Assembly (NCBI GenBank): GCA_905178155.1 | Contig: CAJINV010000032.1 | Span: forward strand, 18,110-46,379 | Length of the DNA stretch: 28,270 nucleotides | Reading direction: 5' to 3' | DNA from: Amoebophrya sp. A120 | Taxonomy: Eukaryota; Protista; Dinoflagellata | Shown here: one piece after another, positions 4,997 through 26,300 of the stretch | Layout: each line of letters begins with the position of its first letter | Position numbering within the stretch: the first letter of the stretch is position 1 | Program-made: the position numbers and the translations under genes | The notes under the pieces: generated by a model | The model's input: only the letters and a program-made list of their open reading frames with translations | Told to the model about the DNA's origin: nothing | The model's database searches: none

Positions 4997-5276
4997 TATC
5001 CTGAGCAAAAACGTCCTCACCCCAGAGTCAAGATGGGAAATCCGCTAGACAAATCAGCCACCTCTGGTTGTTTCGCATGACAAGTTTATCCTCGTAGTGT
5101 AATCCTGTTCAGCTAGTTCCGAAGCATCACAGATCTAGCATATCATGCTGATTCTAGCATTACAAATTCCAAAACAGGATTAAGAAAATGGTTCTCATGG
5201 GGCTCCGCATGAGAAACTTTTTTGGCATACAGATTTGCATGACAACCCTGGTGTGGGGACATTTTTACTCAGGATA
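4997..5276. mobile_element. IR introner/MITE family B, outside CDS
   Basis: TATCCTGAGCAAAAACG...CATTTTTACTCAGGATA; 5-bp DR CCCTT/CCCTT. Confidence 0.92.
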
Positions 5277-5516
5277 CCCTTTTCAACATCGTCACCGGCG
5301 AGCATTGCACGGCTTCGTAGAGGTAGAGATTGATGTAGGGTTTGAAGAAAGCTTGCTTCTTTATCTGGTGGTTTATTCACTGCGAAGATTCTTCTTCACG
5401 GACTGGAAGCTTCAACATGAAGATCTGGTCGAAGTAGAAAAGTCGATTCTTTTTTGTTATGTTGTTTTCTTTCTAACTCGGAGTCGCGTTACGGGGATTT
5501 GCTTGGAGAAGACAGG

Positions 5517-5775
5517 TATCAACTGTAAAAATGTCTGGGCCTGCAAATTTGTGATGCATGGCAGTGAAAAGAAAGCATACTGTAGTGCGCCGCCAGGCAT
5601 GACAAATTTATCCTTGGCTCCCTGTTGCGTATTCCGCATGACAAACACCGTTTTTGCATGACAGATAAGAGGAGCTCTTGCTGGTCACGCAATACAGAGC
5701 TCCGCGTCATGCCCGACTAGCATGACAAATGCAAACTCCGCATCCTTCCAGACCCAGACACTTTTGCATTTGATA
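5517..5775. mobile_element. IR introner/MITE family A, outside CDS
   Basis: TATCAACTGTAAAAATGTCTGGG...CCCAGACACTTTTGCATTTGATA; DR ACAGG/ACAGG. Confidence 0.92.
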
Positions 5776-5836
5776 ACAGGTTGCGAAAGATGAGACGCCA
5801 GAAGGATGCTGCGAAAAGTCGGCTGCTTTAAGTGGT

Positions 5837-8800
5837 TCACTTCTTCTTAGCGGCAGGCTTTTTCTTCGCGGCAGCCTTCGCGGCCGCCTTTTCTTCCTTT
5901 TCTGCCTCCTTCTGGGCTTTCTTTTTCGCGGCCGCTGCAGCCTTTTCAACTTTCTCTTGCTCCTTCTGCGTATCAAATGCAAAAGTGTCTGGGTCTGGAA
6001 ACTTGTGTTGCTGATACTTGCATTGCAAACTTGCTGCGTGTACGGCATAACAGCATGAGAAATTTCCCTCGGCATTCCTTGGGGATTTCATTCGTATTTA
6101 GCATTACAAACTACCATATCCAGCACGACAAAAAAACTGGCCGATGGCATTCATGCATTACAGATCTTGTTGTCCTTGAAGTCCTGCATCACAAACCCAG
6201 ACCCGGACACATTTGCAATTCATACTGTGCCTTCTTGTCCTCGTCAGCCTTCGCCTTAGCGGCTTTAGCGGCGGCTTTTATCAAAGTGAAAAATCCCCCC
6301 TCCCCATACTAAAAAGGGATACTCCTGAAGATTTGTGATGGTGATTTGTAACCACAAATCGTCTCTGCATTGCACGAAGGCAACCCCAGCGACTCCGCTG
6401 CGTTGCGCAGGCAATTTGTGACGGTGTATCGCCTACAGAGGATGTGCCTGCCTTGCTAGGTGCCTACACCAAAACGCCCCTCCTCAGGCTGCGCACCTGC
6501 CTGCAGTCCTCTACTGCAACACAAAGCCGATTTGTGTACACAAATCCCGCATCACAGATTTCCATTTTGATCTGAGGCGGGGGGATTTTTCATTTTGATA
6601 GCTTTCGCGGCGGCTTTCTTCACCTTCTGGTCGTCTTTGTATGCCTGTTATCCTGAGTAAAAACGTACCCACACCAGAGTCAGGATGGGGAATCTGCTAG
6701 ACAAATCAGCCAGCTTTGGTTGTTTGGCATGACAAGTTTGTCCGCGTAGTGTAGTGCTGTTTGAGCTAGTGGAGCAGCATTACAGATCTAGCATCTCGTG
6801 CTGATTGGAGCATGACAAATTTCAAAACCGCATTAGAAAATGCTTCTCATGGGGCTCCGCATGAGAAACATTTTAAGCATGCAGAGTTGCATGACAACTA
6901 TGGCGTGGGTACGTTTTTACTCAGGATACCTGTACGGACAGACCAGCCGCAGTGGCAGCCTCCTTGATCTTATCAACTGCAAAAATATCTGGGTCTGGAT
7001 GAATGCCAGACTTGTCATGCAGGTTGTCCATGACCCATGAGGTTGAGGTCTCGGTCTGGTATGTAGGACATAGCATGACAGATTCTGTGAGAGTTCTATC
7101 ATGCCTATCCTGCATGAGAAACTCCCTCTCGATTAGGTCAAAAGTGGACAGCTTTTGGTAATCATGCAACACAGATTTTTACATGTTTCAGATTTAGCAT
7201 GACAAGTTGTTTTGTTCCAGACCCAGACATTTTTGCATTTGATAGATCTCCGCATTTTTCGCCGCCGCCTTTTCCCGCCTCTCCAGCACCTCTGGCTCGA
7301 AATTTTCCAGGGCCCGCTTCCACTTCGTCCCATTCCATCCTGGATCGAACAGTTCGTAGCCGTCGGCCAGCATCCGGGCAATCCAGTCCTTCTCGGCCTT
7401 ACCAATGTACAGGTGATAGCGTGTTCGACCACCAAAGGTTGCTGTGCTGTACTTTCTGAGTTCACAGAACCCTATGCAGTGCAAATATCTTCGATCTGGG
7501 TTTGGATGGATGCAGATGTCTGTCATTCGCATCCTCCCACAAGGCCTAGGCCATGCAAAGGGCCTTTAGCAATACAAACTTTCCAATAGGCGTGGGCCTG
7601 TAGGCCTAAATTCCGGTCGGTTGGTCGGTCGGTTGGTTGGTTTTGGACAGACGACAACTGACCGAACCCGCTCCATTGTGTTTTGTGTTTTTCTGAGATT
7701 CATCTATTATTACTGTTGAAGCTGCCTACCTACCCACCTACCTGGCGTCTTTTCGATTCATTGTAGTACCGTGATCGCACCGATCCACCTACCTACCTAT
7801 CCCTTGCCACCCAGAGACAGCTGCCTACTGGTCACGCCTACCGACCTACCCACCCACATGGTGGGTAGGTGGGGCGAGGGAGCGCGCGCTGCCTATTGGC
7901 CACGCCTACCGACCTACCGACCCACCAGCCTGGTGGGTGGGTGGGGCGAGGCAGGGCGCGCTGCCTATTGGCCACACCTACCGACCTACCCACCCACCTC
8001 GCTGGTGGGTGGGTGGGGCGAGGGAGCGTGCGCTGCGTATTGGCCACGCCTACCGACCTACCCACCCACCAGCCTGGTGGATGGGTGCGGCGAGCAAACG
8101 CTGTCTATTGGCCACGCCCACCGACCTACCCACCCACCTCGCTGGTGGGTGGGTGGGGCGAGCGTGCGCTGCCCCTTGGCTACGCCTACCGACCTACCCA
8201 CCCACGGGCCTGGTGGGCGGGTGGGGCGAGCGTGCGCTGCCTATTGACCACGCCTACCGACCTACCCGCCCACCTCGCAGGTGGGTGGGTGGGGTGAGCG
8301 TGTGTTGCCTCTTGGCCACGCCTACCGACCTACCCACCCACCTGCCTGGTGGGTGGGTGGAGCGAGCGCGCGCTGCCTATTGGCCGGGCTGCCGAGCGAC
8401 CTACCCACCCACCAGGCAGGTGGGGGTGTGGGGCGAGCGTGCGCTGCCTACTGGCCACGCCTACCGACCTACCCACCCACCTGCCTGGTGGGGGGGGGCG
8501 GGGCGAGCGTGCGTTGCCTATTGGCTACGCCTACCGACCCACCCACCCAGCTGCCAAGCGGGGGGGGGCGAGGGAGCGTGTGTTGGCTATTGGCCACGCC
8601 TACCGACCTACCAGCCCACCTGCCAAGCGGGGGGGGAGGGGGTGGGGCGAGCGTGCGTCGCCTATGGCCCAATCTATTAGCAGGGGGCTTGCAAGCAAGG
8701 GACTCGCGAAGCCAAGGGGTTGCGCAAAAAGCCCCCGCTCGGCTTGACCAAGCGGGGGCTGATCCAAATTTTGCGCGAATTTGTCTCTATTTCCCAAGTG

Positions 8801-11800
8801 TGTTTTGCTTGGGTTGAGGAAACGCAGGCCGTGGCTGGAGAAAAGTGCAGCATTGGAGCCCCGACCTCTTTCTATCTCACAGGCGCAAACTCTCACGAGG
8901 CCCCCTGGAGCTCCGATTGCGTCCACGCAGCACAGATCTGTGTCGGCAGCGAGCTGCGCGCAACACTGCTTTGTGTTGCGCGCAACACAGATGCGCGCCC
9001 ACGCAGCACAGATTTGTGTCTCCGGCGAGCTGCGCGCAACACAGATGTGCGCGCAACACGCAGCACAGATTTGCGCGCAACGCCGATTTGTGCTGCGCGC
9101 ACGCAGCGGAGATTTGTGTCTGCGGCGAGCTGCGCGCAGCACAGATCTATGGCGCGCGCAACACAGATTGGCGTCCACGCAACACAGATTTGCGTCTGTG
9201 TTGCGTGGACACATCGAACTCTCCTTCTGCCGAGACCTTTCTGCCGCCCTGGCGGAAGTGCCTACTGGGCGGCGATAGGATGCGGCGCTACCAGCCTCGC
9301 AGGGGCGGGCTGCAGCCCCGGTAGGGAGGCAGGTGCGCCGCGCGCCCCGACCACCCCCCTATCGTGTTTCGCCCTCCTTGCCGTTGCGGTTGTCTTCTAA
9401 ATCCGAAACCGATATGCGTTTTTCCATAAGTCGGAAATTCGGTCAATTGTCGTCTGTCCAAAACCAACCAACCGACCGACCAACCGACCGGAATTTAGGC
9501 CTACAGGCCCACGCCTACTCAAACTTTCAGAAGGATATTTGTCAACACGACGGCCTTAGCCACATAAAACGAATCTCCTTCTTCGGAGACAAGAAATGCA
9601 CTGCTTGTGCAATGCACTACTTACTTGTGCTTGTCTCCGTGCATGAGAAATTTTTATCTGATCCGAAATGCGCATCACAAGTTAACAAGTACTGCATCCT
9701 CCAAGAGGTGGACCCAAGTCGATATATTTGCAATGCATAAGCAGGAAACACAGCTGGTGCGGAGACTGTGGCTCGGCATGCCCTATATACCCGATTTTGA
9801 ACGCTTTGAGCTGCTCTAGGCGTCTTCCCCATCTCGAATAGTGAATAATGGTCACGAAGAACGCCGTTTTCGTGCAGGCAGACCGCATCGTCTTGGTGGT
9901 AACACCGTCGCGGTGTGTATCTACAAAGGTAAACGCACGAAGTCCGGACTTGGTATACCGCGCTGACGACATATACGCCTCTGCGATTTGGTTCAACAAA
10001 AACGTTGGACCTCGGCCAGTCTCCCAAATTTGTTTGAAGAGACTGGCCGCAGTGCGAAAAAGGTCATCTTTATGGAAAGAAAAAAGTTTGTCACAGTCAC
10101 TAACTTGCAGGTTTTGCATTACAAATTTTTTTAGCATCACAAGTTTTCCTTGTATTGCAGAAACACTAGGGAAAACCCCTATGAAGCTTGGCTGTCATGC
10201 ATTTTTACGCATGACAGCCAGTTTTGTATTGCAAAAATGCGCATGAGTAATCGTGACGAACTTTTTTTGTTTGATAATCTTTGCGGCTCTCGGGTTGCCC
10301 TTTCGCGAACTTTTCCGGGTTCTTCAGGATCACCTCGAGCGCAAACGACAAGCCGAAGTTTTTGTCGTCGCCGAAGAATCGTAGAAGCAACTTATCCTGA
10401 GTAAAAACGTCCCCGCCCCAGAGTTGTAATGCAGATTTGCAAAGACGGGAAGACTTGTAATGCGCCAGCCCATGAGAGCCATTTCGAATCTTGTTTTGGA
10501 ATTTGTGATACTGTAAACAGGATGCCAGGATGGATTTCTGATGCGGTTGTCCTTGATGCTAACCCGCATTACAGTACAGCGAAAAACTTGTCATGCGTGA
10601 CTCCCAAAACTTCTGGATCTGTGTTGCAGAATTCCCAACTTGAGTCTGGGGCGGGGACGCTTTTACACAGGATACAACTCAACTGACGTCCATGCGGTTT
10701 TAGTTGCCCCCAGAGACTTTGGTTTCCCGAAGTGCTGTATGACAGTGCACAACACCCCCTCCCCCTCCTTTGTCATGCAAAAACCTACATCCAGCTGCTA
10801 TTATCTTGGGGCCCCGTGTGCATGACAAATTCCGGAAATGATCCAAACAGTACTACTTACTTACACTCGGCGCATGAAGAACTTGTCATGCACGGGGTCC
10901 ACCAGCTGATGTGCTGGTGTTTGTAATGCTGTTGATGCCATAGTACAAATGAGGGGGAGGGGGAGTTGTGCAGTCTCATATGCATTTCGGCCCATTCCAG
11001 ATCCTTCTCTTCCAGCGGCGTGTTCTTGTATAGGTGATGTCTGGATTCGGACTTACTCATCCCTGGGAGGCACTTGGTACCCATGAACGCCATCCGCGTC
11101 AGGTGTCTGAGCCATGCAAGTGCTTCGTACAGCGTCTTGGACTCTTCGATCTTTTCCATCATGTACACGCTCCGGAAGTCCAATTCGGTGTCGAACTTAG
11201 ACTATCCACTGCAAATATAATCGATCTGGGTCTGGACACTTCTCTTGCTCATCCCTGCATGACAGACTGGCTGCTTCGATACGGCATAACAGCATGAGAA
11301 GTTCTTGTTTTCCTCAGCATGATTTCTTGCGGATGTCAGTCGTCTTTAGCATCTTACAAACTGTGATGCATAAAGTAGGGCTGAGTCGTACTTTATGCAT
11401 CACAAATTTTTCTGTCGTTGAAGTCCAAATTTTTTTTTATCTCATCACACGTCCTTGAAGTCCAGCATCACAAATCCAGATCGATATTTGCAGTGCATAT
11501 ACACCCGTACCGCGTTTGAACCGGCGGACAAAAAAACTTATCCTGTGCAAAAGTATCGCACTCGTAGTAATCGCAATCATGCATTACAAATCTCACTCCT
11601 AACCTAAATCCGCAGTACAAATTCGATTGTTCATGCTGAGGGGATTTGTCATGCGATCTATACTAGTACGATGCTTTTGCATTTCATAAAGCTTCTGCTT
11701 CCCCAACTCTGGTATCAACTGCAAATATGTCTGGGTCTTCTGGAAATTTGTGTTGCTGACACTCGCATCAGAGGGTAGAAGCCGCTTGTATACGGAATAG

Positions 11801-14800
11801 CACCATCAGAAGTTGTTTGGAAAGGCTTGTACTTGCTGATTCATTCGGAAAATAACGCATGACAAGCTTCAATCCAGTATGTACGACAAAAAAACTGGCC
11901 CATCGCATTCATGCATCACAGATCTTCTTGTCCTTCAATTCTCGCATCACAAGTTATCCAGACCCAGATGAGATATTTGCAATGCATATCTGGGTGCATT
12001 GGGTCCTCGTAGTCGTCAACCCGAGCGATGTATCCTGTGCAAAAGTGTCGTACTTGAATTGCAATCATGCATTACAAATTTTTTTTGAAGGGTAAATCAG
12101 CATTACAAATTTTATTTCTCATGCTGAGGTAATTTGTATATGCATTTCTACGAGTACGATAATTTTGCAGTTCATACATTGCCGCGTGGGCGTCCATCAG
12201 CGCATTTCTCACGTTATCACACAGAAAAATAAGCAGGCAGGTCATAAAAGTTGTCATGCAAAAATAATTCAGACAAAAAAATCTGTATTGCAACTCCTAA
12301 ACAGCATGCGGCGGCGCCGCCCATGAAAGATTTTTCTGTGCATTCATTTTGGCATGACAAATTATATGCCCTGCTAGCTTTTTTCTCTGGGATACACGCG
12401 GACCGTAATCGCGGGCGAACAGCGTCACGTAGACCTTCTCGATGCTGGAAATCACGGGGTTCTCGGTGTGGTTGTCACACGCATCCCGCATGAGCTTCGC
12501 ATCGTTCGCGCAAGCGTCGCAGAGGAGAAGCTCGCTCGCCGCCAGGAAGTGTATCCAAGAAAAAAAGTGTGAAGTGTAAGTCTTTTGGGAAAACTGCATC
12601 ACAAGTTTGTCTGCCATGACAGGAAAAATTTGCTATGCGCAGATAGGAAGGGAAAAGAACTAGGAAGGGAGCCGATCATGCACGTCGAGCATGACAAGTG
12701 TAACTGTCTTGCATTTTCTGCATCACAGATTTACACTTACACAGTTTTTTTCTTGCATAAAGTGGAAAGTCGGTTTATTGCCCACGGCACTCGGTGCCTC
12801 GTCTTCTGGAGTCCTTTCGACACCAGCACCCGACCAAAACTCTGCCACTTCGTTTCCTACAGTGTCGAGTAGCGATTTGGTACAGTCCTCTTTCTCGCAG
12901 AGGCAGCACCGGTATGCATTGCAAAGATGTCTGGGTCCTCTGGAAGAATGCTGGTTTACGAAGATGCTAAAGTAAAAATCTCGGAGTGACACCAAAATCT
13001 GCATTGCAGGGGAAACACAACAAGCTGCTCACGAAGAAAGGTTTCTAGATATGGTAAAACGACCCGAGGTCAAGCCCGTGATGCTGTGCCCTGCAAACCA
13101 GACCTTCGGAGTCGTCCATTCAGCGCAAGACAAATTATTATACCTGCATCGTTCCAGATCTCCCAGACACTCTTGCAATTGATAGCCGTCCGATGTGCCA
13201 CTCCCGTTCGCTATGCTTGACCCACATCTTGCGGAACTTTTTCGACGTGTGACGTTTTTTCGGCACGACGTCTGGATTGTTTTTTTATCAAATGCAAAAA
13301 TGTCTGGGTCTGGAAGGTTGCAACTTGTGATGCTGTCTTTGGAAGGTAAAAAAAAACTGTATTGCATGACCAGCAAGAGGAGTTCCGTTTGTGCTACGCG
13401 AAGTGGGCGTTTCTCATGCGGAATACGCATCAGAAGGCCCTTTAAAAATCTGTGATTCTAGGTCATGCATTGATACGATACAATGACCGGCTATGCAAAA
13501 TATGCATGACAAACCTGGCAGTCTTCCAGGTCCAGACATTTTTGCACTTGATACCTTGCCTCCGCCATTGTCCTATGCATTGCAAAAGTATCGCATTCGT
13601 ATGTATGCATTACAAATTTCCTCAGCATGAGAAATGAAATTTGTAATCCGGATTTGCCTTAAGAAAAGGATTTGTAATGCAAGACTTGCATTTATACGAG
13701 TACGATGCTTTTGCACAGGATATGTCCGAGTCGTGCTCGTTCACGTACTCCTCCTATGGATTGCAAATATGTCTGGGTCTGGAAGAACCAAACTTGTGAT
13801 GCTGAATTTGGATGCTAAAAAAATCTGTATTGCATGAGCAGCAAGAGGAGTCAAATTTGGCTACGCGGAGAGGGCATTTGTCATGGAGGATGCGCATCGA
13901 TAGACGCTCAAAAAATCTGTGATGCTATGGCATGCATCGGAGACATCATGGATCATGGAAAATGTGCATGACAAACTTCTACTTTCCAGACCCAGACATT
14001 TTTGCATTCGATACCTCCTCATGTTGTCCCTCTGGCGGATTGTTCTTCTTTTTCCCCTATCAAATGCAAAAATGTCTGGGTCTGGAAACTCGTGGTGCAA
14101 GGAAGGGAATACTGGTGAAAACACTGTAATGCGCTGCCAAGCAAGACAAGTTTTTTCCATGGTTCTGAGTTGCGTACTCCGCATGAGAAACTGCGTTCGA
14201 GCATGACAGGCAAGACGAGCTCTTCGCGGCCATGCAACACAGAGTTCAGAGTCATGCCAGACAAGCATGACAAATCTCGCAATTTTCAAAACCCAGACAT
14301 TTTTGCATTTGATATCGCCCGCGGCTTCGGCTTGGCTCTCGCCTTTGCCGCGGCTTTTGCAGCAACCGCAATCGGTGGAGGAGGTGCTGGCACAGGTGGG
14401 AGTAGAAGGCTGTTCTTCTTGTTCGCTTTTTTGTCCGCACGGTTCTCGTTGTGGTCCGAGTGCATTATTCTACAGAAAAGTAGAAGTACACCGATAGATT
14501 GACCAGAAAAAAATTGTTGAATCTGTCATGGCGCTGTTTATGTTTTCTCGTCACAATAAAACGAGGCTCTATGAAGAAGAAGATCATGCTGATCATCCGC
14601 ATGAAAGTCGATAATTCTCTTTCAGCACGCTACACAAAAAGCTAAATCAGCAAGACAAATTTCTTTTTTTTCTGGCACCAGCATGGGTGTACAACATTTG
14701 TGTTTGCATGGGATAATATTATCCGTCTTCATCTCGTCTCCCTCGACTGAGTGTTTTTTGTTTTTCCTCGCTTGTTTTTTGTTCTCCTTCTTTTCCTTTT

Positions 14801-17800: not shown

Positions 17801-20800
17801 ATACAGATTTTTTTTAGAATCGCAAGACAGCATCAAAAGTTGCATTCTTCCAGACCCAGATCGATATTTGCACTCGATATGCGATAGCGGCGGGAGACTT
17901 TGACCCAAGGATTTTCTTCCTGGTGCTTCCTATGAATTGCAAAAGTATCGTACTAGTACGAATTACATATACAAATTTCCTCAGCATGAGAAATGGAATA
18001 TGTAATGCTGATTTCCCTCAAGGAAAAGATTTGTAATGCATAACTGCAATTACAACTACGAGTGCGATACAACTTTTGCACTGGATACTTCCATAGCGCC
18101 TCGTCACCGTAAAGGTCCTTTACGGTCCATTCTTCGTCGTTTCTGGGTTTTATCTCGCCCGTGCTATCCCACGAAACAACTGTTTCACTGTGATGGTTTT
18201 GCAAGATCTGCATCACAAGTTTGCTACACATGACACAGAAAATTTGTCATGCGCGTTTTCCAAGGGAAAACACGCTGAAAGATCCGTTGTGTTGCAGGTG
18301 TAGCAAGACAAACGCATTGGTGTTTCGCTCTCTGCATCACAGATTCACAATGAAGCAGTTTTTTCTTGCGATACGTTCTCTCGTCGATGTAGTGTTGGAA
18401 CACAGGCGTTGCGGTATTCTGAGTAAAAACGTCCCCACCCTCGAGTTGTCATGCGAAATTTGCACGCCAAAAAAGTTAGTCATGCGGAGCTGCATGCTGA
18501 GAGCCATTTTCTAGTTGTGTTTTGGAATTTGTCATGCTAGAAGCAGCATGATGCGCTAGATCTGTGATGCTGCTGAATTACCTAAACAGGACTACTCTAC
18601 CGGGACAAACTTGTCATGCGAAACAGCCATAGCTGGTTGATTTGTCTAGCAGATGTCCCATCTTGACTCTGGTATGCGGACACTTTTACTCAGGATATGC
18701 GCTACTATCAACCGGGACCTGCTGCTGCTGCTGCGGCGCGTCTGGGTTGTTGTAGCAGTACAGGTTCATGTTAAAGTCTGCCGCAGAAACGGCTCCGAAC
18801 TCATAATATGGTATCAAATGCAAAAATGTCTGGGTCTGGAAGAATGCAAGTTTGTCATGCAGCTTTTCCATGACCATCCACGAGGTCTGGAATGCAGGAC
18901 CTAGCATGACAGATTCATCTGTGTGATCTCTTTCGTGCCAATTGTGCATGAGAAACTCCCTGCCGACTTGGTCAAAAGTCGACAGCTTTTGGTAATGATG
19001 CAACACAGATTTTTGCATGATTCAGATTTAGCATGACAAGCTGCATTCAATTCTTCCAGACCCAGATATTTTTGCAGTGGATATTTGGCTGCTGGATACC
19101 AAAGTTACCGTCCGCCTGCGAAAGCGCTCCGTAGGTATACTGGTCATTCTGCATCAAACTTGACCCAGCTGCGCTCTCCATACCAGGAAAAACCGCTGGC
19201 GTTTCCGAGTAGTTCGCAAAGATCTCAGTGTTGTCGCGATTGTAGAAGTCGCTCGCATATCCTGTGCAAAAGTATCGCACTCGTAACGCAATCATGCATT
19301 TACAAATCTTTTCCTGAAAGCAAGTCACCTTTACACATATTATTTCTCATGCTGAGGAAATTTGTAAAATGCATTTATACGATTACGAGTACGATACTTT
19401 TGCACAGGATATCGCAATCGTCAGGCCACCTTTCAGCAGGTGAAATTGTCCCCCAGAAGAACCAAATGCGGTTCCAGACTGGAAATCAAGCGCAGAGCTG
19501 GTGCCTGGTTCTGCCACGCCACCCTCTTGGCCTGGGAAGGGGAGAACGCTTTCTCCTCCTACAGGTTCCGGCTGTTGATTCGATGAAGTTGTACTGGGAA
19601 CATTAAAATGTTGATAGTTAAATGAGTATCAAATGTAAAAATGTCTGGGTCTGGAAGAATGGAAGGCTTGTCATGCTTGTCTGGCATGACCCATGATGCT
19701 TGTAATGCATGACCCAGCATCACAGATTTTTGGAAAGCTTCCTGATGCCATTTCCGCATGACAAATGCCCTCCTCGCGTAGCACACATGTGGCTCCTCTT
19801 GCTGGTCATGCAGTACACATTTTTTTAGAGTCCAAAGTTAGCATCACAAGTTCCAACTTTCCAGACTCAGACATTTTTACATTTGATAAGGAGTTGAAAA
19901 CGTTCCGTTCGCCATGTTGATCCTCGTCCTGGGGTATGGATTGCAAATATGTCTGGGTCTGGAAACTTGTGATGCTGGCTGGCGTATCATGAGGAGGCCA
20001 CAAGTACTGGCTTAGCATGACAAGTTTCTGAGCTTCTAGGTGTTCCCTATATTGCATGACAAACTGCGTCTCTGCATGACAGAAAAGTGGCGCTCTTGGG
20101 TAACGTGCATGACAGATTTGAGAGTCATGCCAGACAAGCATGACAAACATGCACTCTTCCAGACCCAGACATTTTTACATTTGATATGGGGCAACAGAAA
20201 TTCGCGCGCAGCAGTCGCCGACGTTGAACTACTGCTTGCAGCCGCAAATGCAGGAGCAGGAGCCGACGATGAGCTACTACTTGCAGCCGCAAAGGCCCTT
20301 TTCTGCCCGCCGGTACTAGAGGTCATGATCTCAGCAGCCGGTAGAAGTTTTTCTCGATCTGAGTGTAGTTGAGCCTCCTTGTTGTCTCGTGGTGCTTTGC
20401 TCATCTTCCCAGATGAAGCTCCAGCTTCAACAGCAGCAACCGCTGTCGTGGCTGTTGGACGACTAGAAGTCTATCACAAGAAAAAAGTGCTACAGTTACA
20501 CATCTGTTGTAAGTTCAGCAACACAAATTTTCTCTGTGTGGCAGAGAAAATTTGCAATGCAGAGATCCTATGGGAAAACACGTACGAAATGAAGTTTGGA
20601 TGCATTTATTGCATGACAAAGGGTGTCTGTCTTGCGGCTCCTGCAACACAATGTGTAACTGTAGCATTTTTTTCTTGCGATAAAGTCGCCGCGGTTTTTC
20701 GGGGTCGACCACGCCCGCGTTTTGCGGCTGGAGGAGCACTTATTTCTTCATCTTGCGGTCGTGCCTCAATGCGATCAGGATTGTTCTTTTCCGACAGCGG

Positions 20801-23800
20801 CACACCTGTCACAGGGTCGAGCTGTGGTGGAGCAGCAGCGTCCAACGGCTTCGAGGCCGGTCCTTGTTGCGAAGGTTTTATTTGTCCCTCCGCTGCAGCT
20901 GCCGAGCTGCTTTTCGCATCCTGGGACGTCGATGAGATGATTTTCATGTGGGACGATCTACTCACGACCTCCTTGTCCGCGTGGTCAACATCCGCTAACA
21001 CACTAACGCCGGTGCCAACGCCGTTGTCCGGGTTTTCTTCCGTGAGAGGCGGCTCAGCAGCTAAGGTAGTTGGATGTTCCTTTGCAGCTTCTTTCCCGGC
21101 GGCGAATGCTGGTCCTTGTCCATCAGAAGTTTGTTCTGGCCACTTGGCGTTCTTGCCGGAAACTTGCTGTCGTGCACTGCTCAGTTGTCCATGATCTCGA
21201 AGGTCGTCGTCTTCGGACTTGATGTCGAGCTGTTTGTGCATGTTCGCATCTTGTTCCGGGCGCTTGACATTGATGTCCTTGTTGCAACTCCCAGTGAAGA
21301 TTTCACTGATATTATTCTGAACGCCTTTCTTGGCCATCGTCTTGAGCTGGGGAGCAGCGGCATCCAACGGCTTCGCGGCCGGTCCTTGTATCAAATGCAA
21401 AAATGTCTGGGTCTGGAAGGATGCAACTTGTAATGCTAGCTTTGGACTCTACACAAAATCTGTCTTGCATGACCAGCAAGAGGAGTTCAGTTTGTGCTCC
21501 GCGGGGAGGGCATTTGTCATGCGGAATAGGCATCAGGAGGGTCGCTAAAAATCTGTGATGCTAGATCATGCATTACAGACATCCTGAGTCATGCAAAATA
21601 TGCATGACAAACTCCTGCATGCGTCCAGACCCAGATATTTTTGCATTTGATACCTTGTAGTTGCGCAGGTTTTATTTGTACCTCCACTGCAGCTGCCGAG
21701 CTGCTTTTCGCATCCTGGGAAGATTTTTGGATGATCTTCATGTCCGACGATCTACTCACGACCTTGTCCGCCTGGTCAACATCCGCTAACACATCAACGC
21801 GAGTGCCAACGCCGTTGTCCGTTTTTTCTTCCGTAAGAGGCGGCTCAGCAGCTAAGGTAGTTGGATGTTCATTTCCAGCTTCTTTCCCGGCGGCGGATGC
21901 TGGTGCTTGTGCGTCAGAAGTTTGCTGTTGCCACTTGGCGTTCTTGCCGGAAACCTGCTGTCGTGCTGCACTCAGTTGTCCCTGATCTCCAAGGTCGTCG
22001 CCTTCGGACTTGACGAGCTGTTTGTGCATGGTCGCATCTTCCTATGACAGTGCACAACTCCCCCTCCCCCTCATTTGTGTAGCATGAACAGCAATACTGT
22101 AAGCATCAGCAAGAGTGCCGGCTTTGCATGACAAATTCACACTCGAGTGTAGTGCTATTTCGGCTGCCAGAACTTGCCAAGCTAACAGTGCCAAGAGGCA
22201 AAGGGGGGACTGGGTATTTTGCATGACAAATCAGGGGGAGGGGGGGTTGTGCAGTGTCATACTTTCCCGGCGGCGGATGCTGGTCCTTGTGCGTCAGAAG
22301 TATGTTCTTGCCACTTGGCGTTGCCAGAAGCCTGCTGTCGTGCACTGCTCAGCTGTCCATGATCTCCAAGGTCCTCGTCTTCGGACTTGATGTCGAGCTG
22401 TTTATGCATGTTCGCATCTTGTTCCGGGCACTTCACGTTGATGTTGTCCTTTTTGCAATCATTCCCAGTGAAGCTTTTTTCCCCGGAAAAAGAACCACTC
22501 TGACCGCCTTTCTTGACCGTCGTCTTGGCTTTATTCGGTTTAGCCTTGTCGTGCTTGTTCTGCTGTAGCTTAGGAAGATCGGGCTGTTGTTTTTCTTGTG
22601 CATCGTCAACAGTAGTGTTTATTTCCTTGCAGTTCTTCAGAAGACTGCTAGAGCTACCTGGAACCACGTGCGACGCCCCGGCCGCGGGTTTGGCCTGCGG
22701 GTTTTTGTTTCTCTGGTGCTCACCGTCGGCAGATTTTTCCTTCTGCCCCTTGCTGAGTTTCGCGTTGCAGCTCATTGGCGAGATGTCGCTCACACTATCC
22801 TGCAGCAGGGTCATATGGGAGTGTCAGGATTGAAATCGTCAAAGTTGAAATAGTTTGTCATGCAGGAAATGGAGCGCAAAGACTGCCTCTATTGCAGAGG
22901 ACGCAAGGGAGGCACATTGTAGTGCTGGTAAGGGTCGACAGAGGGAAGCCCCATTGCCCTGAACAGCATGACAAACTGGCTTCCGGTACGGACAAAATTT
23001 GTCATGCGCCGACTAGAAACTGCGGGTCCAATTGGTATCCATTTTATGCATGACAAATCATTTCAACTTTGTCGATTTCAAACCTGACGCTTCCATAGGT
23101 CACTGGTTGAGCTTCAGCAGTCGCCACTTGTGGCCCAACAGTCCTGCCTCCTTTGCTGGATGCGCCCTTTGCTTTTTGCTTTTTCATCTTTGTAGTTGTG
23201 GGCTGCTCTTGTCCAGCAATTTTTCCAGCATCACGTTTGTTGTTGCTCCCCCCGACAATATGAGCTGGTTTTATCGTGGGAAAAAAATGTCTCAGTGCCA
23301 ACTTGTAATGCGCAAGAACCTCCTTGACAAGACAATTGCTTGCCATGCTCAACGTGCAAAAAAGCCGGCTTTCGCTGCTTGTGTTTTCCCTTTTATGTGG
23401 TCTGACGCATCACAGATTTTCAACATCTGTGTCATTCTGAGCAAATAATTTGTATTGCTGAGTCTGCAATCAAGGATCCAAAACTTTGGGACTGAGACAG
23501 ATTTTTCTTGCGATAAGTGCGGCCACGCAACTACTGCTGCTGTTTCTTTTCGCAGGAGGGAGACCAAGCTCACTGTCATCCCGACCACGCTTCGTGGCGC
23601 GCCCATCGGGTACGGGTACTTCGTGTCTGGACGTCGTGTCTTTGGAGCTCGCTGCTACTCCTATCAGGGGCGCAGCTTCATCTGATAACTCTCGATCACC
23701 GACAGGCCATTTCGATTGTTCTTTCTTGCCGGCGCCGTCGTGTGCCTTTTGCGGCGCACCTCCACGCACATTTGCTTTCGTTGCAGCAGGAGTTGCCGGC

Positions 23801-26300
23801 CGCTTGGAAGTTGATTTTCGATTGTTTTTCTTGGTTTCCTGTGCTTTCGCAACCTCCTTTCCACCGAGCGATCGGCCCCTCGTCTTCGACGAAACCGTAT
23901 CACCTGCAAAAATGTTTGGGTTCTTTGGAAGAGCCAAAGTTGTGATCATGCTGCATTTGGATGCTAAAAAAATCTGTATTGCATGAGGAGCAAGAGGAGG
24001 TAAATTTCGCTACGCGGAGAGGGGGCATTTGTCATGCAGAATGCGCATCGATGGGCGCTCAAAAAATCTGTGATGCTACTTATGGCATACATCACAGAAA
24101 TCATGGATCACGGAAAATGTGCATGACAAACTCCTCCTCTTCCAGACCCAGATATATTTGCAGTTGATATGCCTCCGCCTCGAATTTCTTCAAAGACGCG
24201 ACTGATCCTGGGGCGACGGGTATCCTGAGGAAAAACGTCCCCACCCCAGAGTTGTCATGCAGATTTGCAATGGCAAGGACATTTGTGATGCACATACCTA
24301 TGGTAAACATTTCCAATCGTGTTTTGGAATTTGTGATGCTATGAACAGGATAAGGAGACGGATTTGTTATGCGGCTTCCCTTGCTAAGCTGCACTACAGT
24401 ACAGTGTGCAACTTCGCATGCGTGACTCCCAAAGCTTCTAGGTTTGTGTTGCAAAGTCCCCATCTTGCCTCTGGTGTGGGGACGTTTTTACTCAGGATAA
24501 CGGGCGGCTTCCGATCTCCAACCTTAGAGGATGAGGACGAGGTCGAAGAGAGTACTGGCACCAGCGATGCCTGCTGATTCATCTTCCCGGAGTCGTTATT
24601 TCCTGCGCGTTATGCATTGCAAATATGTCTGGGTCTGGAAGGTGAGAACTTGTGATGCTAACTTTGGACTCTAAGAAAATCTGTATTGCAGGACCAGCAA
24701 GACGAGCCCAGTTTGTGCTACGCGGGGAGGGCATTTGTCGTGCGGGATATGCATTAGGAAGGCCTTTAAAAATATGTGATGCTAGATCATGCATTACAGA
24801 CATCCTGAGTCATGCGAAATATGCATGACAAACCTGGCAACCTTCCAGACCCAGACATTTTTGCATTTGATACGCGTGCTGTATTTAAAGACGAGGCTGC
24901 CGCTGCAGTGGAGCTGGACTCCTGCTTCTTCTTGATGCCCGCGCCTACATCTTCCGCATTGTTCGTCTTCCCACTGCGTGCACGTGAGCGAGAACCTGCT
25001 TTCCCCTGCTGTGCACCTCTTGGTGCTACCGGAGGCATATGAACTGCAAAAATTGTATCGCACTCGTCGTGTAAATGCATTTACAAATTTCCTCAGCATG
25101 AGCAATGAAATTTGTAATGCGGATTTAGTTTAAGAAAAATATTTGTAATGCATGCATGACTGCAATTACTCCGAGTACGAAACTTTTGCACAGGATAAGG
25201 TACCAGAGCCGGAGGTTTGGCGGCCAGAACAGCCGACGAACTCGAGCTTGGTTGTCCCGGAGCGTTTGGTATGCATTGCAAATATGTCTGGGGCTGCGGC
25301 TGGAAACTTGTAATGCTAAAAGTGAATGGTAGACGCACTGCAATACGCAGCTACGCAAGACAAATTTTTTGGCTGCCATGTCTTACGTATTCCGCATGGC
25401 AAACTGCGTTTTTGCATGACAGGCAGCAGGGCCTTTCCGTGCCTAGGCAACACAGATTCATCTCGAGTCATGCCACACAAACATGACAAAGTTGCATTCT
25501 TCCAGACCCAGACACTTTCACAGTTGATATTGGGGCGATGCGGCCTGGGAGATTTGCATCCCGCGGCCAGGATTTTCTCCGCCAGGTTCTTCTCCCCATG
25601 TGTGCCGCCTTTTGGTGCTACCGGAGGTATATGAACTGCAAAAATTGCATCGCACTCGTGTAAATGCATTACACATTTCCTCAGCATGAGAAATGAAATT
25701 TGTAATGCGGATTTAGCTTAAGAAAAAAATTTGTAATGCATGATTGCAATTACTACGAGTGCGAGTACGAAACTTTTGCACAGGATAAGGTACCACAGCC
25801 GGAGGTTTGGCGGCCGGAACAGCCACCGCTAGCTGTACGTGCTTCGCATCCGGTTTCTGCACACCGGATTTGACAGATTTCGCATCGCCCCGAGAACAAG
25901 CTCTCGCTTTCGAGGCGGCGAGCCGCCTGGGTGCTACCGGAGGTACCAGAGCCGGAGGTTTGGCGGCCGGAACAGCAGACGAGCTGGAGCTTGATTGTCC
26001 CGAAGCGTTGGCGGGTATGCATTGCAAATATGTCTGGGTCTGGAAGGTTGCAACTTGTCATGCTGTCTCTGGATCGTGCAAAAATCTGTGTTGCATGAAT
26101 GCCAGAAGCTGTCCACTTTTGACCAAGTTGAGAGCAGTTTCTCATGCAGGATCGGCATGATAGAGATCTCACAGAATCTGTCACGCTAGGCCCTGCATTC
26201 TGCATTCCAGACAACATGGATCATGGAAAATCTGCATGACAAATCTCGGAACCTTCCAGACCCAGACACTTTTGCATTTGATACTGGGACGATGCGCCAT
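5837..26300 (-). CDS. Large (~2284 aa) putative DNA/chromatin-binding protein, 49 exons: low-complexity and repeat-rich N-terminal half, AT-hook, acidic middle, Cys/His motifs, Lys/Ala-rich C-terminal tail
   Basis: Inter-element segments (each includes both DR copies; drop 5 nt per junction): 26284-26300, 25788-26015, 25530-25629, 25198-25269, 24873-25037, 24500-24610, 24170-24220, 23516-23897, 23098-23271, 22262-22813, 21653-22042, 20683-21388, 20187-20471, 19889-19934, 19412-19626, 19084-19257, 18698-18811, 18374-18414, 18088-18164, 17880-17930, 17567-17592, 17270-17314, 16969-17047, 16567-16644, 16106-16326, 15860-15956, 15612-15706, 15277-15350, 14716-15105, 14315-14465, 14014-14057, 13723-13754, 13554-13573, 13185-13285, 12760-12912, 12395-12551, 12177-12214, 11989-12030, 11689-11712, 11500-11538, 10981-11202, 10675-10737, 10277-10392, 9740-10070, 7245-7472, 6929-6970, 6601-6648, 6225-6278, 5837-5970. 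Sum 7095 - 48x5 = 6855 nt = 2285 codons; all 48 junctions checked by hand stay in one stop-free frame (MAHRP...AAKKKPAAKKK*). The start codon is uncertain because the frame stays open upstream. Confidence 0.9.
5971..6224. mobile_element. IR introner family A (intron)
   Basis: TATCAAATGCAAAAGTGTCTGGGTCTGG...TTGCAATTCATA; DR CTGCG/CTGTG; frame restored. Confidence 0.9.
6279..6600. mobile_element. IR introner family C (intron)
   Basis: TATCAAAGTGAAAAATCCCCC...GGGGATTTTTCATTTTGATA; DR GCTTT/GCTTT. Confidence 0.92.
6649..6928. mobile_element. IR introner family B (intron)
   Basis: TATCCTGAGTAAAAACGTACCCAC...GTGGGTACGTTTTTACTCAGGATA; DR CCTGT/CCTGT. Confidence 0.93.
6971..7244. mobile_element. 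IR introner family A (intron)
   Basis: Family A TIRs; DR GATCT/GATCT. Confidence 0.93.
7826..8668. repeat. ~65-70 bp tandem repeat inside the nested element
   Basis: Unit approx. TATTGGCCACGCCTACCGACCTACCCACCCACC-N-GGTGGGTGGGTGGGGCGAGCGTGCGCTGCC, roughly a dozen copies. Confidence 0.95.
8925..9210. repeat. Array of GCARCACAGAT(TTG) motifs inside the nested element
   Basis: About a dozen copies, e.g. 8927, 9003, 9036, 9060, 9136, 9158, 9179, separated by GCGC-rich spacers. Confidence 0.85.
10071..10276. mobile_element. IR introner family D (intron)
   Basis: TATGGAAAGAAAAAAGTTTGTCAC...GTGACGAACTTTTTTTGTTTGATA; DR ATCTT/ATCTT. Confidence 0.9.
10393..10674. mobile_element. IR introner family B (intron)
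   Basis: Family B TIRs; DR CAACT/CAACT. Confidence 0.93.
10738..10980. mobile_element. IR introner family E (intron)
   Basis: TATGACAGTGCACAACACCCCCTCCCCC...GGGGGAGTTGTGCAGTCTCATA; DR TGCTG/TGCAT. Confidence 0.9.
11203..11499. mobile_element. IR introner family A (intron)
   Basis: TATCCACTGCAAATAT...ATATTTGCAGTGCATA; DR TAGAC/TACAC. Confidence 0.88.
11539..11688. mobile_element. IR introner family F (intron)
   Basis: TATCCTGTGCAAAAGTATCG...CGATGCTTTTGCATTTCATA; DR AAACT/AAGCT. Confidence 0.9.
11713..11988. mobile_element. IR introner family A (intron)
   Basis: Family A TIRs; DR TCTGG/TCTGG. Confidence 0.92.
12031..12176. mobile_element. IR introner family F (intron)
   Basis: Family F TIRs; DR CGATG/CATTG; frame restored. 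Confidence 0.88.
12215..12394. mobile_element. IR introner family G (intron)
   Basis: TATCACACAGAAAAATAAGC...GCTTTTTTCTCTGGGATA; DR CACGT/CACGC. Confidence 0.87.
12552..12759. mobile_element. IR introner family H (intron)
   Basis: TATCCAAGAAAAAAAGTGTGAAGTGTAA...TTACACTTACACAGTTTTTTTCTTGCATA; DR AAGTG/AAGTG. Confidence 0.92.
12913..13184. mobile_element. IR introner family A, diverged (intron)
   Basis: TATGCATTGCAAAGATGTCTGGG...CCCAGACACTCTTGCAATTGATA; DR ACCGG/GCCGT. Confidence 0.87.
13286..13553. mobile_element. IR introner family A (intron)
   Basis: Family A TIRs; DR decayed TTTTT/CCTTG; frame restored. Confidence 0.87.
13574..13722. mobile_element. IR introner family F (intron)
   Basis: Family F, opposite orientation to 11539-11688; DR TGTCC/TGTCC. 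Confidence 0.92.
13755..14013. mobile_element. IR introner family A (intron)
   Basis: Family A TIRs; DR CCTCC/CCTCC. Confidence 0.92.
14058..14314. mobile_element. IR introner family A (intron)
   Basis: Family A TIRs; DR TCCCC/TCGCC. Confidence 0.91.
14466..14715. mobile_element. Highly degenerate IR introner (intron)
   Basis: TATTCTACAGAAAAGTAGAAGTACACC...GGTGTACAACATTTGTGTTTGCATGGGATA; DR lost (TGCAT/ATATT); removal +5 nt joins MKTD to SDHNEN in frame. Confidence 0.7.
15106..15276. mobile_element. IR introner family F (intron)
   Basis: Family F TIRs; DR TCCAA/TCAAA. Confidence 0.88.
15351..15611. mobile_element. IR introner family A (intron)
   Basis: Family A TIRs; DR ATTCG/ATTCG. Confidence 0.92.
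15707..15859. mobile_element. IR introner family F (intron)
   Basis: Family F TIRs; DR GGTTT/GGTTT. Confidence 0.92.
15957..16105. mobile_element. IR introner family F (intron)
   Basis: Family F TIRs; DR TCCTG/TCCTG. Confidence 0.92.
16327..16566. mobile_element. IR introner family E (intron)
   Basis: TATGGAAGTGCACAAG...GTTGTGCACTGTCATA; DR TCGTT/TCGCC. Confidence 0.88.
16645..16968. mobile_element. IR introner family C (intron)
   Basis: TATCGTAAGGAAAAATCCCCCTCCCCATATC...GATATGGGGAGGGGGCATTTTTCCTTTTGATA; DR CGAAA/CGAAA. Confidence 0.92.
17048..17269. mobile_element. IR introner family B (intron)
   Basis: TATCCTGTGTAAAAAC...GTTTTTACATAGGGTA; DR AAGTC/AAGTC. Confidence 0.9.
17315..17566. 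mobile_element. IR introner family A (intron)
   Basis: Family A TIRs; DR AAGAA/AAGAA; near-identical to 19935-20186. Confidence 0.93.
17593..17879. mobile_element. IR introner family A (intron)
   Basis: Family A TIRs; DR TGCGA/TGCGA. Confidence 0.92.
17931..18087. mobile_element. IR introner family F (intron)
   Basis: Family F TIRs; DR CTTCC/CTTCC. Confidence 0.92.
18165..18373. mobile_element. IR introner family H-like (intron)
   Basis: TATCCCACGAAACAACTGTTTCACTGTGA...TCACAATGAAGCAGTTTTTTCTTGCGATA; DR CGTGC/CGTTC. Confidence 0.88.
18415..18697. mobile_element. IR introner family B (intron), inverted relative to 6649-6928
   Basis: Interior is the reverse complement of the 4997 and 6649 copies; DR TGCGG/TGCGC. 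Confidence 0.92.
18812..19083. mobile_element. IR introner family A (intron)
   Basis: Family A TIRs; DR TATGG/TTTGG. Confidence 0.91.
19258..19411. mobile_element. IR introner family F (intron)
   Basis: TATCCTGTGCAAAAGTATCG...CGATACTTTTGCACAGGATA; DR TCGCA/TCGCA. Confidence 0.93.
19627..19888. mobile_element. IR introner family A (intron)
   Basis: Family A TIRs; DR ATGAG/AGGAG. Confidence 0.91.
19935..20186. mobile_element. IR introner family A (intron)
   Basis: Family A TIRs; DR TGGGG/TGGGG. Confidence 0.93.
20472..20682. mobile_element. IR introner family H-like (intron)
   Basis: TATCACAAGAAAAAAGTGCTACAGTTACACAT...ATGTGTAACTGTAGCATTTTTTTCTTGCGATA; DR AAGTC/AAGTC. Confidence 0.92.
21389..21652. 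mobile_element. IR introner family A (intron)
   Basis: Family A TIRs; DR CCTTG/CCTTG; empty paralogous site at 20862-20866. Confidence 0.94.
22043..22261. mobile_element. IR introner family E (intron)
   Basis: TATGACAGTGCACAACTCCCCCTCCCCC...GGGGGTTGTGCAGTGTCATA; DR CTTCC/CTTTC. Confidence 0.91.
22814..23097. mobile_element. IR introner family I with ~50-bp TIR (intron)
   Basis: TATGGGAGTGTCAGGATTGAAATCGTCAAAGTTGAAAT...ATTTCAACTTTGTCGATTTCAAACCTGACGCTTCCATA; DR GGTCA/GGTCA. Confidence 0.92.
23272..23515. mobile_element. IR introner family H-like, diverged (intron)
   Basis: TATCGTGGGAAAAAAATGTCTCAGT...ACTGAGACAGATTTTTCTTGCGATA; DR decayed GGTTT/AGTGC; frame restored. Confidence 0.85.
23898..24169. 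mobile_element. IR introner family A (intron)
   Basis: Family A TIRs; DR decayed AACCG/TGCCT; frame restored. Confidence 0.87.
24221..24499. mobile_element. IR introner family B (intron)
   Basis: Family B TIRs; DR ACGGG/ACGGG. Confidence 0.93.
24611..24872. mobile_element. IR introner family A (intron)
   Basis: Family A TIRs; DR CGCGT/CGCGT; very similar to 21389-21652. Confidence 0.93.
25038..25197. mobile_element. IR introner family F (intron)
   Basis: Family F TIRs; DR AGGCA/AGGTA. Confidence 0.92.
25270..25529. mobile_element. IR introner family A (intron)
   Basis: Family A TIRs; DR TTTGG/TTGGG. Confidence 0.9.
25630..25787. mobile_element. IR introner family F (intron)
   Basis: Family F TIRs; DR AGGTA/AGGTA; empty paralogous site at 25941-25945. 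Confidence 0.93.
26016..26283. mobile_element. IR introner family A (intron)
   Basis: Family A TIRs; DR GCGGG/CTGGG. Confidence 0.9.

Follow-up and report, generated by a model that had tools for sequence, protein, structure and literature searches.

The elements that crowd a large gene of Amoebophrya sp. A120, a marine parasite of algae, fall into families with different interiors, and all of these families carry one 11-bp motif, GCAWNACARRY, in spaced and constrained arrays. We propose, at a probability of about 0.6, that this motif is the putative double-stranded DNA binding site of one protein, either a transposase or an accessory factor, that mobilises all of the families. A single constrained and phased motif in families that cannot be aligned points to one trans-acting protein, as the first-pass annotation of this DNA had suggested. 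The elements are already known; the recognition code shared across families is real and likely not previously described.

The window is the whole 28,270-nucleotide stretch that was analysed. Elements were called by an inverted-repeat scan followed by a stricter call, and 9 of the 49 short elements did not pass the stricter call and were included manually. The catalogue comprises 49 TAT...ATA elements of 146-324 bp and one A-type element at 7473-9739, 50 in all, and a 5-bp flanking repeat is exact in 27/49 and matched at four of five positions in 13 more (40/49 at 4-5). When 48 elements, each with 5 bp, are spliced out in silico, the minus strand reads from an ATG at 26300 to a stop codon at 5837-5839. 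The features are as follows, with the strand of individual motif sites given as + or -.

5837-26300, minus strand: host gene, 2,284 codons once 48 elements and 5 bp each are removed
4997-5276: family B element past the host stop codon; sites 5044+, 5075+, 5124+, 5157+, 5207+, 5237+
5517-5775: family A element past the host stop codon; sites 5557-, 5597+, 5636+, 5656+, 5689+, 5720+
5971-6224: family A intron; sites 6011-, 6020+, 6053+, 6101+, 6155+, 6186+
6279-6600: family C intron; sites 6341-, 6516+, 6549+
6649-6928: family B intron; six sites, all antisense to the transcript, 6696+, 6727+, 6777+, 6810+, 6859+, 6889+
6971-7244: family A intron; sites 7020-, 7073+, 7112+, 7166+, 7197+
7473-9739: A-type intron, TIR 13/14, 2,267 bp owing to a nested insertion; sites 7569+, 9641+, 9672+
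7584-9524: nested element with inverted ends of ~85 bp, an 8-bp direct repeat, ends other than TAT and a 68-bp tandem array (7820-8624)
8927-9204: minisatellite of motif variants (GCAGCACAGAT, GCAACACAGAT) within the nested element
10071-10276: family D intron; sites 10116+, 10134+, 10158-, 10200-, 10209+, 10232-
10393-10674: family B intron; six sites, all sense to the transcript, 10432-, 10463-, 10511-, 10544-, 10596-, 10627-
10738-10980: family E intron; sites 10778-, 10820+, 10891-, 10929-
11203-11499: family A (divergent) intron, 6 sites
11539-11688: family F intron; sites 11581+, 11612+, 11654-
11713-11988: family A (divergent) intron, 4 sites
12031-12176: family F intron, 3 sites
12215-12394: family G intron; sites 12259-, 12291-, 12352+
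12552-12759: family D intron, 4 sites
12913-13184: family A (divergent) intron, 2 sites
13286-13553: family A intron, 3 sites
13574-13722: family F intron, 3 sites
13755-14013: family A intron, 5 sites
14058-14314: family A intron, 5 sites
14466-14715: family H intron with a weak TIR (8/14), duplication 1/5 and hand-chosen ends that fit the frame; 2 sites
15106-15276: family F intron, 2 sites
15351-15611: family A intron, 6 sites
15707-15859: family F intron, 4 sites
15957-16105: family F intron, 4 sites
16327-16566: family E intron, 4 sites
16645-16968: family C intron, 5 sites
17048-17269: family B (short) intron, 4 sites, all minus
17315-17566: family A intron, 6 sites
17593-17879: family A intron, 2 sites
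17931-18087: family F intron, 3 sites
18165-18373: family D intron, 5 sites
18415-18697: family B intron, 5 sites, all minus
18812-19083: family A intron, 5 sites
19258-19411: family F intron with one intact site (19352-); skipped in an X5 contig (presumed RNA)
19627-19888: family A intron, 5 sites
19935-20186: family A intron, 6 sites
20472-20682: family D intron, 4 sites
21389-21652: family A intron, 6 sites
22043-22261: family E intron, 3 sites
22814-23097: family I intron; sites 22863-, 22966+, 23007-, 23048+
23272-23515: family D (divergent) intron, 4 sites
23898-24169: family A intron, 4 sites
24221-24499: family B intron, 5 sites, all minus
24611-24872: family A intron, 6 sites
25038-25197: family F intron, copied together with its flanks (partner 25630); 2 sites remain
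25270-25529: family A intron, 5 sites
25630-25787: family F intron, copied together with its flanks (partner 25038); 4 sites
26016-26283: family A intron, 5 sites

Removal of 0, 1, 3, 4, 6 or 7 bp along with each element leaves a longest host frame of at most 405 codons, and offsets of 2 or 8 bp, which equal 5 modulo 3, give 1,566 and 2,289 codons. The 48 intron lengths are distributed 17/16/15 modulo 3, showing no frame bias, and a GT-AG or GC-AG register is missing from 45 of the 48. One contig of run X5, presumed to be RNA, fuses position 19252 to 19412, so that the element at 19258-19411 and one 5-bp repeat are gone, and further X5 pieces start or stop at element borders. The open frame, the missing registers and this one presumed RNA joint together indicate that the elements are cut out of RNA at non-canonical ends. 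In the raw RNA runs X8 and X9 only pieces of paralogous elements were matched, so these runs are silent on splicing in the window. The elements also have the features of MITEs, being short and non-coding, with TIRs, a duplication of fixed length and many dispersed copies.

The encoded protein is large, of low complexity and rich in K, E and A, and its gene contains internal repeats of exons and is interrupted by 48 introner introns; a Pfam search of 24 host exons found no family match. GC-rich satellites with 35-bp and 234-bp units, in which the motif is absent, border the gene region at 1-895 and 26436-28269. The two elements past the stop codon have intact arrays and lie within the 3' untranslated part or a neighbouring gene. 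The host frame stays open if the whole 2,267-bp intron holding the nested element is removed, and the nested element had no match among the loci fetched from a second assembly. Several of the motif variants in its minisatellite, which belongs to no TAT element, are 21-24 or 33 bp apart.

A 10-bp motif, GCATNACARA, had been reported to recur several times per element on both strands and to be essentially absent from exons. Element sequence (11,641 bases) has 88 strict matches and spacer sequence (7,379 bases, mostly exon) has none, whereas dinucleotide shuffles give 0.49 (at most 2 in 100 shuffles); 4,096 upstream bases contain one. The strict string occurs in 8/9 window families and GCANNACARA in 9/9. 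The best k-mers common to the window families are all parts of this motif. A family-weighted matrix extends it to 11 bp, GCA(T/A)(G/C/T)ACA(A/G)(A/G)(T/C), or GCAWNACARRY, alike in all nine families, and finds 210 sites in 49/49 window elements, 114 on the plus and 96 on the minus strand, with two to six copies in nearly every TAT...ATA intron. The full motif is one base longer than the reported 10-mer and often has G or C at position 10. All eight positions cited in the first-pass annotation lie within a few bases of a genuine site (5075, 5157, 5237, 10116, 10134, 12352, 22863 on the minus strand, and 23048); those it gave as 5076, 5237 and 10135 miss its strict 10-mer because of this variation at position 10. 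The motif is present in every window family and is not confined to them, since 11 GCANNACARA matches fall in the minisatellite at 8927-9204, inside the non-TAT nested repeat, and one strong site lies at 1390, outside the TAT elements.

A second set of elements was obtained from metagenome contigs scanned with the family-A end pattern, and it is biased to family A because of this seed. The scan gave at least 167 stretches, and the matches listed share one assembly prefix; at least 70 loci were taken from it, of which 65 (547,899 bases) were used after five overlapping loci had been dropped. Elements were called by their ends and duplication alone, blind to the motif, yielding 292 short elements, and 288 were kept after removal of three copies that represent a single locus present on two contigs and of one element called twice in error. 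Their nearest copies to window elements are 72-95% identical. At least one motif site was found in 285/288 and at least two in 282/288, and the strict motif density is 7.3 per kb inside elements versus 0.57 outside. Many sites outside the called elements group within copies that were missed or are damaged, and lone sites outside elements number 96 versus 25-28 expected. Viral contigs gave two family-A end-pattern and five paired-motif matches, which we regard as chance, and the stretches examined contain no TAT elements.

Global alignment scores between window families are close to zero. Relatedness was then assessed by local scores relative to shuffles, with motif sites masked and 16 terminal bases cut: the excess over shuffles was 0-5 between groups versus 18-130 within groups of at least three copies. 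Only D-Q and F-M exceeded the between-group range under these conditions, and a link of D with P and of E with O was seen only when the ends were retained. Fourteen unalignable groups remain after masking, so that end-to-end alignment of the families, which would have reduced the motif to plain common descent, is not what was found. The ends behave differently: TAT is present at 242/257 ends located by inner anchors, the 5-bp duplication is exact in 33/40 pairs called without flanks (0/40 at 3, 4 and 6-10 bp), and A occurs at positions 11-15 at frequencies of 0.64-0.90 over the 14 groups, the A run being missing from families I and J. Since masked interiors cannot be aligned and these terminal features are common, the interiors are, as judged by alignment, unrelated, and the ends obey one rule. 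The earlier description of otherwise unrelated families thus stands for interiors and falls for the ends, which all share TAT and the 5-bp duplication and mostly the A run at 11-15.

The sites are also arranged in a recurrent geometry. Same-strand pairs 30-33 bp apart occur in 6/9 window families, with 5.1 seen versus 1.1 under a fixed-window null and a look-elsewhere P of ~0.06. With the range preset, the pair was found in 4.14 of nine families absent from the window versus 0.62 expected (0 of 3000 randomisations), four of these families (M, O, P and Q) being distant kin of window families. Among the strict groups it is present in 12/14, in 44-100% of the copies of each; it is rare in J (1/12) and absent in R (0/1). 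At 14/18 window ends (5.0 expected), and at 10.7/18 ends in the new families (4.9 expected), the distance from the end to the outermost site is 34-56 bp. Among outermost sites that point outward, these distances cluster at 40-41, 48-52 and 60-63 bp and are depleted at 45-46 and 55-59 bp; their best period is 10.5 bp (0 of 1500 against a smooth null), periods of 9-12 also passing. Inward end sites show no phase (P 0.44), and in the window alone phasing gives P 0.35. A general 10.5-bp phasing of all site pairs is unsupported, as same-strand distances outside 29-34 bp give P 0.09 and divergent pairs outside 37-43 bp give P 0.15. An alternating lattice of 24 and 8 bp, suggested by A, D and F, was not repeated in the new families (convergent pairs at 23-24 bp in 0/9, divergent pairs at 7-9 bp with P 0.30), and the idea that the element end is a degenerate motif copy was dropped, yielding a weak A-run signal in three adjacent registers with negative scores.

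Constraint on the motif was assessed in 16 subfamily alignments with 245 copies, in which sites were defined on the consensus, a procedure that slightly favours conserved columns. The difference from consensus per cell is 0.051 in the motif core, 0.172 in the linker and 0.176 at motif position 5, so that the core changes ~3.4 times less than the linker. A retained core with one free position is the pattern expected of a base-reading protein. Core and linker differ in shared variants (0.145 versus 0.524 alleles per column) and in private variants (19.9 versus 40.7 singletons per 1000 cells), and the constraint is stronger on the shared ones (odds ratio 1.88, P 1.4e-5). Filtering of copies at the time of movement would produce such a stronger depletion of shared variants, and the TIR bases at 17-30 show the same shared and private behaviour as the core. 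From the closest to the farthest pairs the core-to-linker ratio is 0.49, 0.42 and 0.35; constraint thus holds even for recent copies, and a lasting role in the host is conceivable on this ground.

If the motif is the binding site of a mobilising protein, several protomers would load onto sites on one helix face relative to the element end, draw the two TAT ends together and then cut, and a cut staggered by 5 bp would accompany insertion. Once its array is lost a copy would cease to spread, and for this reason the array would outlive all other sequence similarity. Splicing would take out the element and one duplication, and would probably read the paired ends rather than the motif. Weighing against this account are the negative transposase search described below, the rejection of general transposase mobilisation by Farhat et al. 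2021, the limits of the phasing, the scarcity of the 30-33 bp pair in J and R and a slight antisense excess of sites. Private core changes occur at half the linker rate even in the closest pairs, as a lasting host function predicts; the shared spacing could descend from one ancestral end; and the motif occurs in a non-TAT minisatellite and in an excess of lone sites, while one 111-bp TAT element has no strong site.

That element (L025:1641-1751) is a near-perfect TAT...ATA hairpin without a strong site, and it adjoins the end region of an I-type element. The annotation had proposed a search for long TAT...ATA elements carrying the motif and an open reading frame. In the 548 kb of fetched loci the longest TAT elements are 631 and 1,104 bp, and no transposase or integrase was recognised among the longest 94 of 171 open frames of at least 230 codons. 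The 1,104-bp TAT...ATA element (L029:505-1608) has a 30-bp TIR, an exact 5-bp duplication, four left-end sites in the family-I layout and GC-rich internal repeats, and no transposase was seen in it. Two adjacent long frames at L026:2628-6083 match C-5 cytosine DNA methylase (PF00145), and other loci hold ordinary eukaryotic genes (SNF2, SET, DNA ligase/DRMBL).

Small insertions inside element copies may bear on movement at the DNA level. Distinct insertions in the window and loci L008-L077 number 77, 29, 135, 25, 14 and 38 for lengths of 1 to 6 nt, and deletions inside elements include five of 3 nt and three of 6 nt. Among insertions with clean flanks, 35/59 of the 3-nt class are 2-bp duplications with one base between (6.1 expected) and 8/19 of the 6-nt class are 5-bp duplications split by a single base (0.1 expected). 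The 5-bp form has the length of the target duplication and so fits excision footprints of nested elements, which these insertions possibly are. The same forms occur outside elements (14/22 at 3 nt, 3/5 at 6 nt), where 4-nt events are frequent as well, and a general habit of DNA repair may therefore underlie them; a non-coding control for the indel spectrum gave no usable signal in 531 aligned bases. If these insertions are excision footprints, they would demonstrate excision at the DNA level and provide a path to the rapid protein evolution described for the genus.

Other readings of the arrays were weighed against mobilisation. A host or domesticated DNA-binding protein might mark introns on chromatin for splicing machinery that works independently of U1, whether or not it also acts in mobility. 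We consider this unlikely. In its favour, the same DNA-level geometry would be expected, the persistence of core constraint in private variants and closest pairs suits it, 45/48 introns lack a GT-AG or GC-AG register, and U1 was not found in A25 and A120 according to the accessible text of PMC7789003. Against it, three F copies with 0-1 strong site, one of which retains partial cores, sit in restored frames of 345-615 codons, and the element at 19258, with one intact site, is skipped exactly in the X5 contig (presumed RNA), its broken sites being single-base-run expansions and possibly assembly errors. The pair 25038/25630, the sole F element found copied together with its exon flanks as an intragenic repeat, has three changes within its four sites, which decayed after the duplication. 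Site number does not differ between copies inside and outside long frames, a comparison that includes only nine copies outside. A bolder version, in which one machine reads a helically phased 11-bp array, moves introners by cut-and-paste with mostly frame-neutral +3/+6 footprints and also flags them for U1-independent removal, strikes us as doubtful; if true, a transposon recognition code would have been turned into the host's main intron code.

It is improbable that the sites instead position a general chromatin protein, such as a nucleosome or a dinoflagellate nucleoprotein, and thereby aid insertion or survival. Steps of a helical turn, the motif minisatellite outside TAT elements and the excess of lone sites would be natural consequences, but nucleosome sequence preference is of a dinucleotide type, unlike an 11-bp base-specific core with one free position. 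The phase is moreover tied to the element end; exons have no strict site and the 4,096 upstream bases have one.

The first-pass annotation had also offered that the motifs pair to fold the element, and a related reading is that the pre-mRNA is folded, with the element ends brought together, through mutual pairing of the sites or through an RNA-binding protein attached to them. The outermost sites are indeed mirror-placed in A, E, G, I and J, and folding of 12 families predicted site-to-site pairing from 0.07 (B) to 0.62 (I), with 0.45-0.62 of site bases paired with another site in I, J, F and E. Against this, the strong sites of family B in the window all point in one direction, as do those of family K, and at position 5 the mirror-placed outer sites agree no more often than shuffled pairs do (A, I, J, E and C; 0.29 versus 0.47 shuffled in A). 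Pairing of the TIRs alone is predicted at 0.6-0.9 in 12/12 families folded. Orientation relative to the transcript is also free: the B copies in the window frame are four sense and one antisense, those in the second assembly four mostly sense and five mostly antisense, and both orientations occur in the same restored frame. The frame test behind the second-assembly figures gave 153, 123 and 104 of 293 at offsets of 5, 4 and 6 bp; it does not single out the 5-bp offset, and only strand was taken from it. All sites together show a slight antisense excess, 358 versus 291 sense, and K is antisense in 3/3. The occurrence of B copies in both orientations within open frames argues against an intron mark read as strand-specific RNA, and we judge folding through the sites to be very improbable. 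Given the drift at position 5, the lack of mirror co-variation and one-direction families lying in both orientations, the motif is likely read on double-stranded DNA rather than as RNA or via pairing.

Least credible is a functionless relic of one ancestral transposon end kept by descent, for which TAT, the 5-bp duplication and mostly the A run common to all families, the 18/24/42 layout shared by D and F, and the kinship of D-Q-P, E-O and F-M might speak, but which is largely refuted already, as linkers have diverged beyond alignment with the core retained, the core is constrained within subfamilies (0.051 versus 0.172) with position 5 free, and site number, direction and order vary even among A subfamilies with the same TIR. 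Common ancestry combined with selection is compatible with the mobilising protein that we favour. That protein would bear on the spread and splicing of most A25 and A120 introns, which lack GT-AG ends or U1, and the 11-bp site, paired at 31-33 bp, could serve as bait for its isolation and as a search key for the autonomous element.

Several known systems resemble parts of this picture. hAT transposons usually make an 8-bp target duplication, and 0/40 pairs here have one. They also need subterminal repeats beyond the TIR, and the constrained arrays described here would be a counterpart if movement depends on them. Hermes, a hAT element, carries short protein-binding subterminal repeats of 4 bp, asymmetric between its ends and in mixed orientation, according to the accessible text of PMC10368747. 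The arrays of 11-bp sites are likewise asymmetric, of mixed orientation and inside the ends, with binding putative here; they differ from those of hAT MITEs in being shared across different TIRs and in belonging to elements that are spliced out exactly.

Tn7 makes a 5-bp target duplication. Binding-site spacing in CAST and Tn7-like ends is 10-bp periodic and the distance to the end is controlled, as stated in the available part of PMC10201428. Several sites per element and a 5-bp duplication are found here too; helical-pitch spacing and a set end distance hold for the 30-33 bp pair and the outward end sites and not for inward sites or other distances. Those elements are bacterial, with TG ends and an element-encoded TnsB, whereas ours are eukaryotic with TAT ends and no protein found, so that the comparison concerns the mode of working only. 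IS3EU/GingerRoot elements have TA..TA termini, usually 6-bp duplications and an IS3/IS481-like DDE transposase in the portion of PMC10045372 available; TA..TA ends are also found here, and the duplication (0/40 at 6 bp, 33/40 at 5 bp) argues against membership.

Copia-type integrases make 5-bp duplications. An A120 introner designated family 38 has an integrase-like open frame between its TIRs in the accessible text of PMC12130899, and it would be the obvious candidate mobiliser. The word "subterminal" is absent from the text and the supplement PDF of that article in their available form, and the name "Amoebophrya" has 0 matches in its Dataset S2. Non-conventional introns of euglenids are non-GT-AG, have paired ends and duplication-like repeats and are likely MITE-derived (accessible parts of PMC12501133 and PMC11282704); their boundary signature is N3CDG ... 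CHGN5-6 (PMC12501133). Their signal is a short CAG/CTG boundary pair, with no internal phased array described in those parts.

The closest system is the A120 introners of Farhat et al. 2021. These have a TIR that begins with TAT followed by seven loose bases and an A run, direct repeats of 3-5 nt, non-canonical ends, a length of about 240 nt and a density of tens per gene; they were placed in 1,954 families, with no transposase reported and general mobilisation by transposase rejected (PMC7789003, as far as its text was accessible). The window elements match them in ends, repeats and non-canonical borders, and also in size and density. Neither the internal motif nor its geometry was found described in the accessible text of PMC7789003, PMC12130899, PMC11282704, PMC12005148 and PMC12501133, although supplements or subscription articles may contain one. 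Compared with the published account, whose available text gives repeats of 3-5 nt and neither an internal shared motif nor spacing nor phasing (PMC7789003), the duplication here is fixed at 5 bp and one array unites the families.
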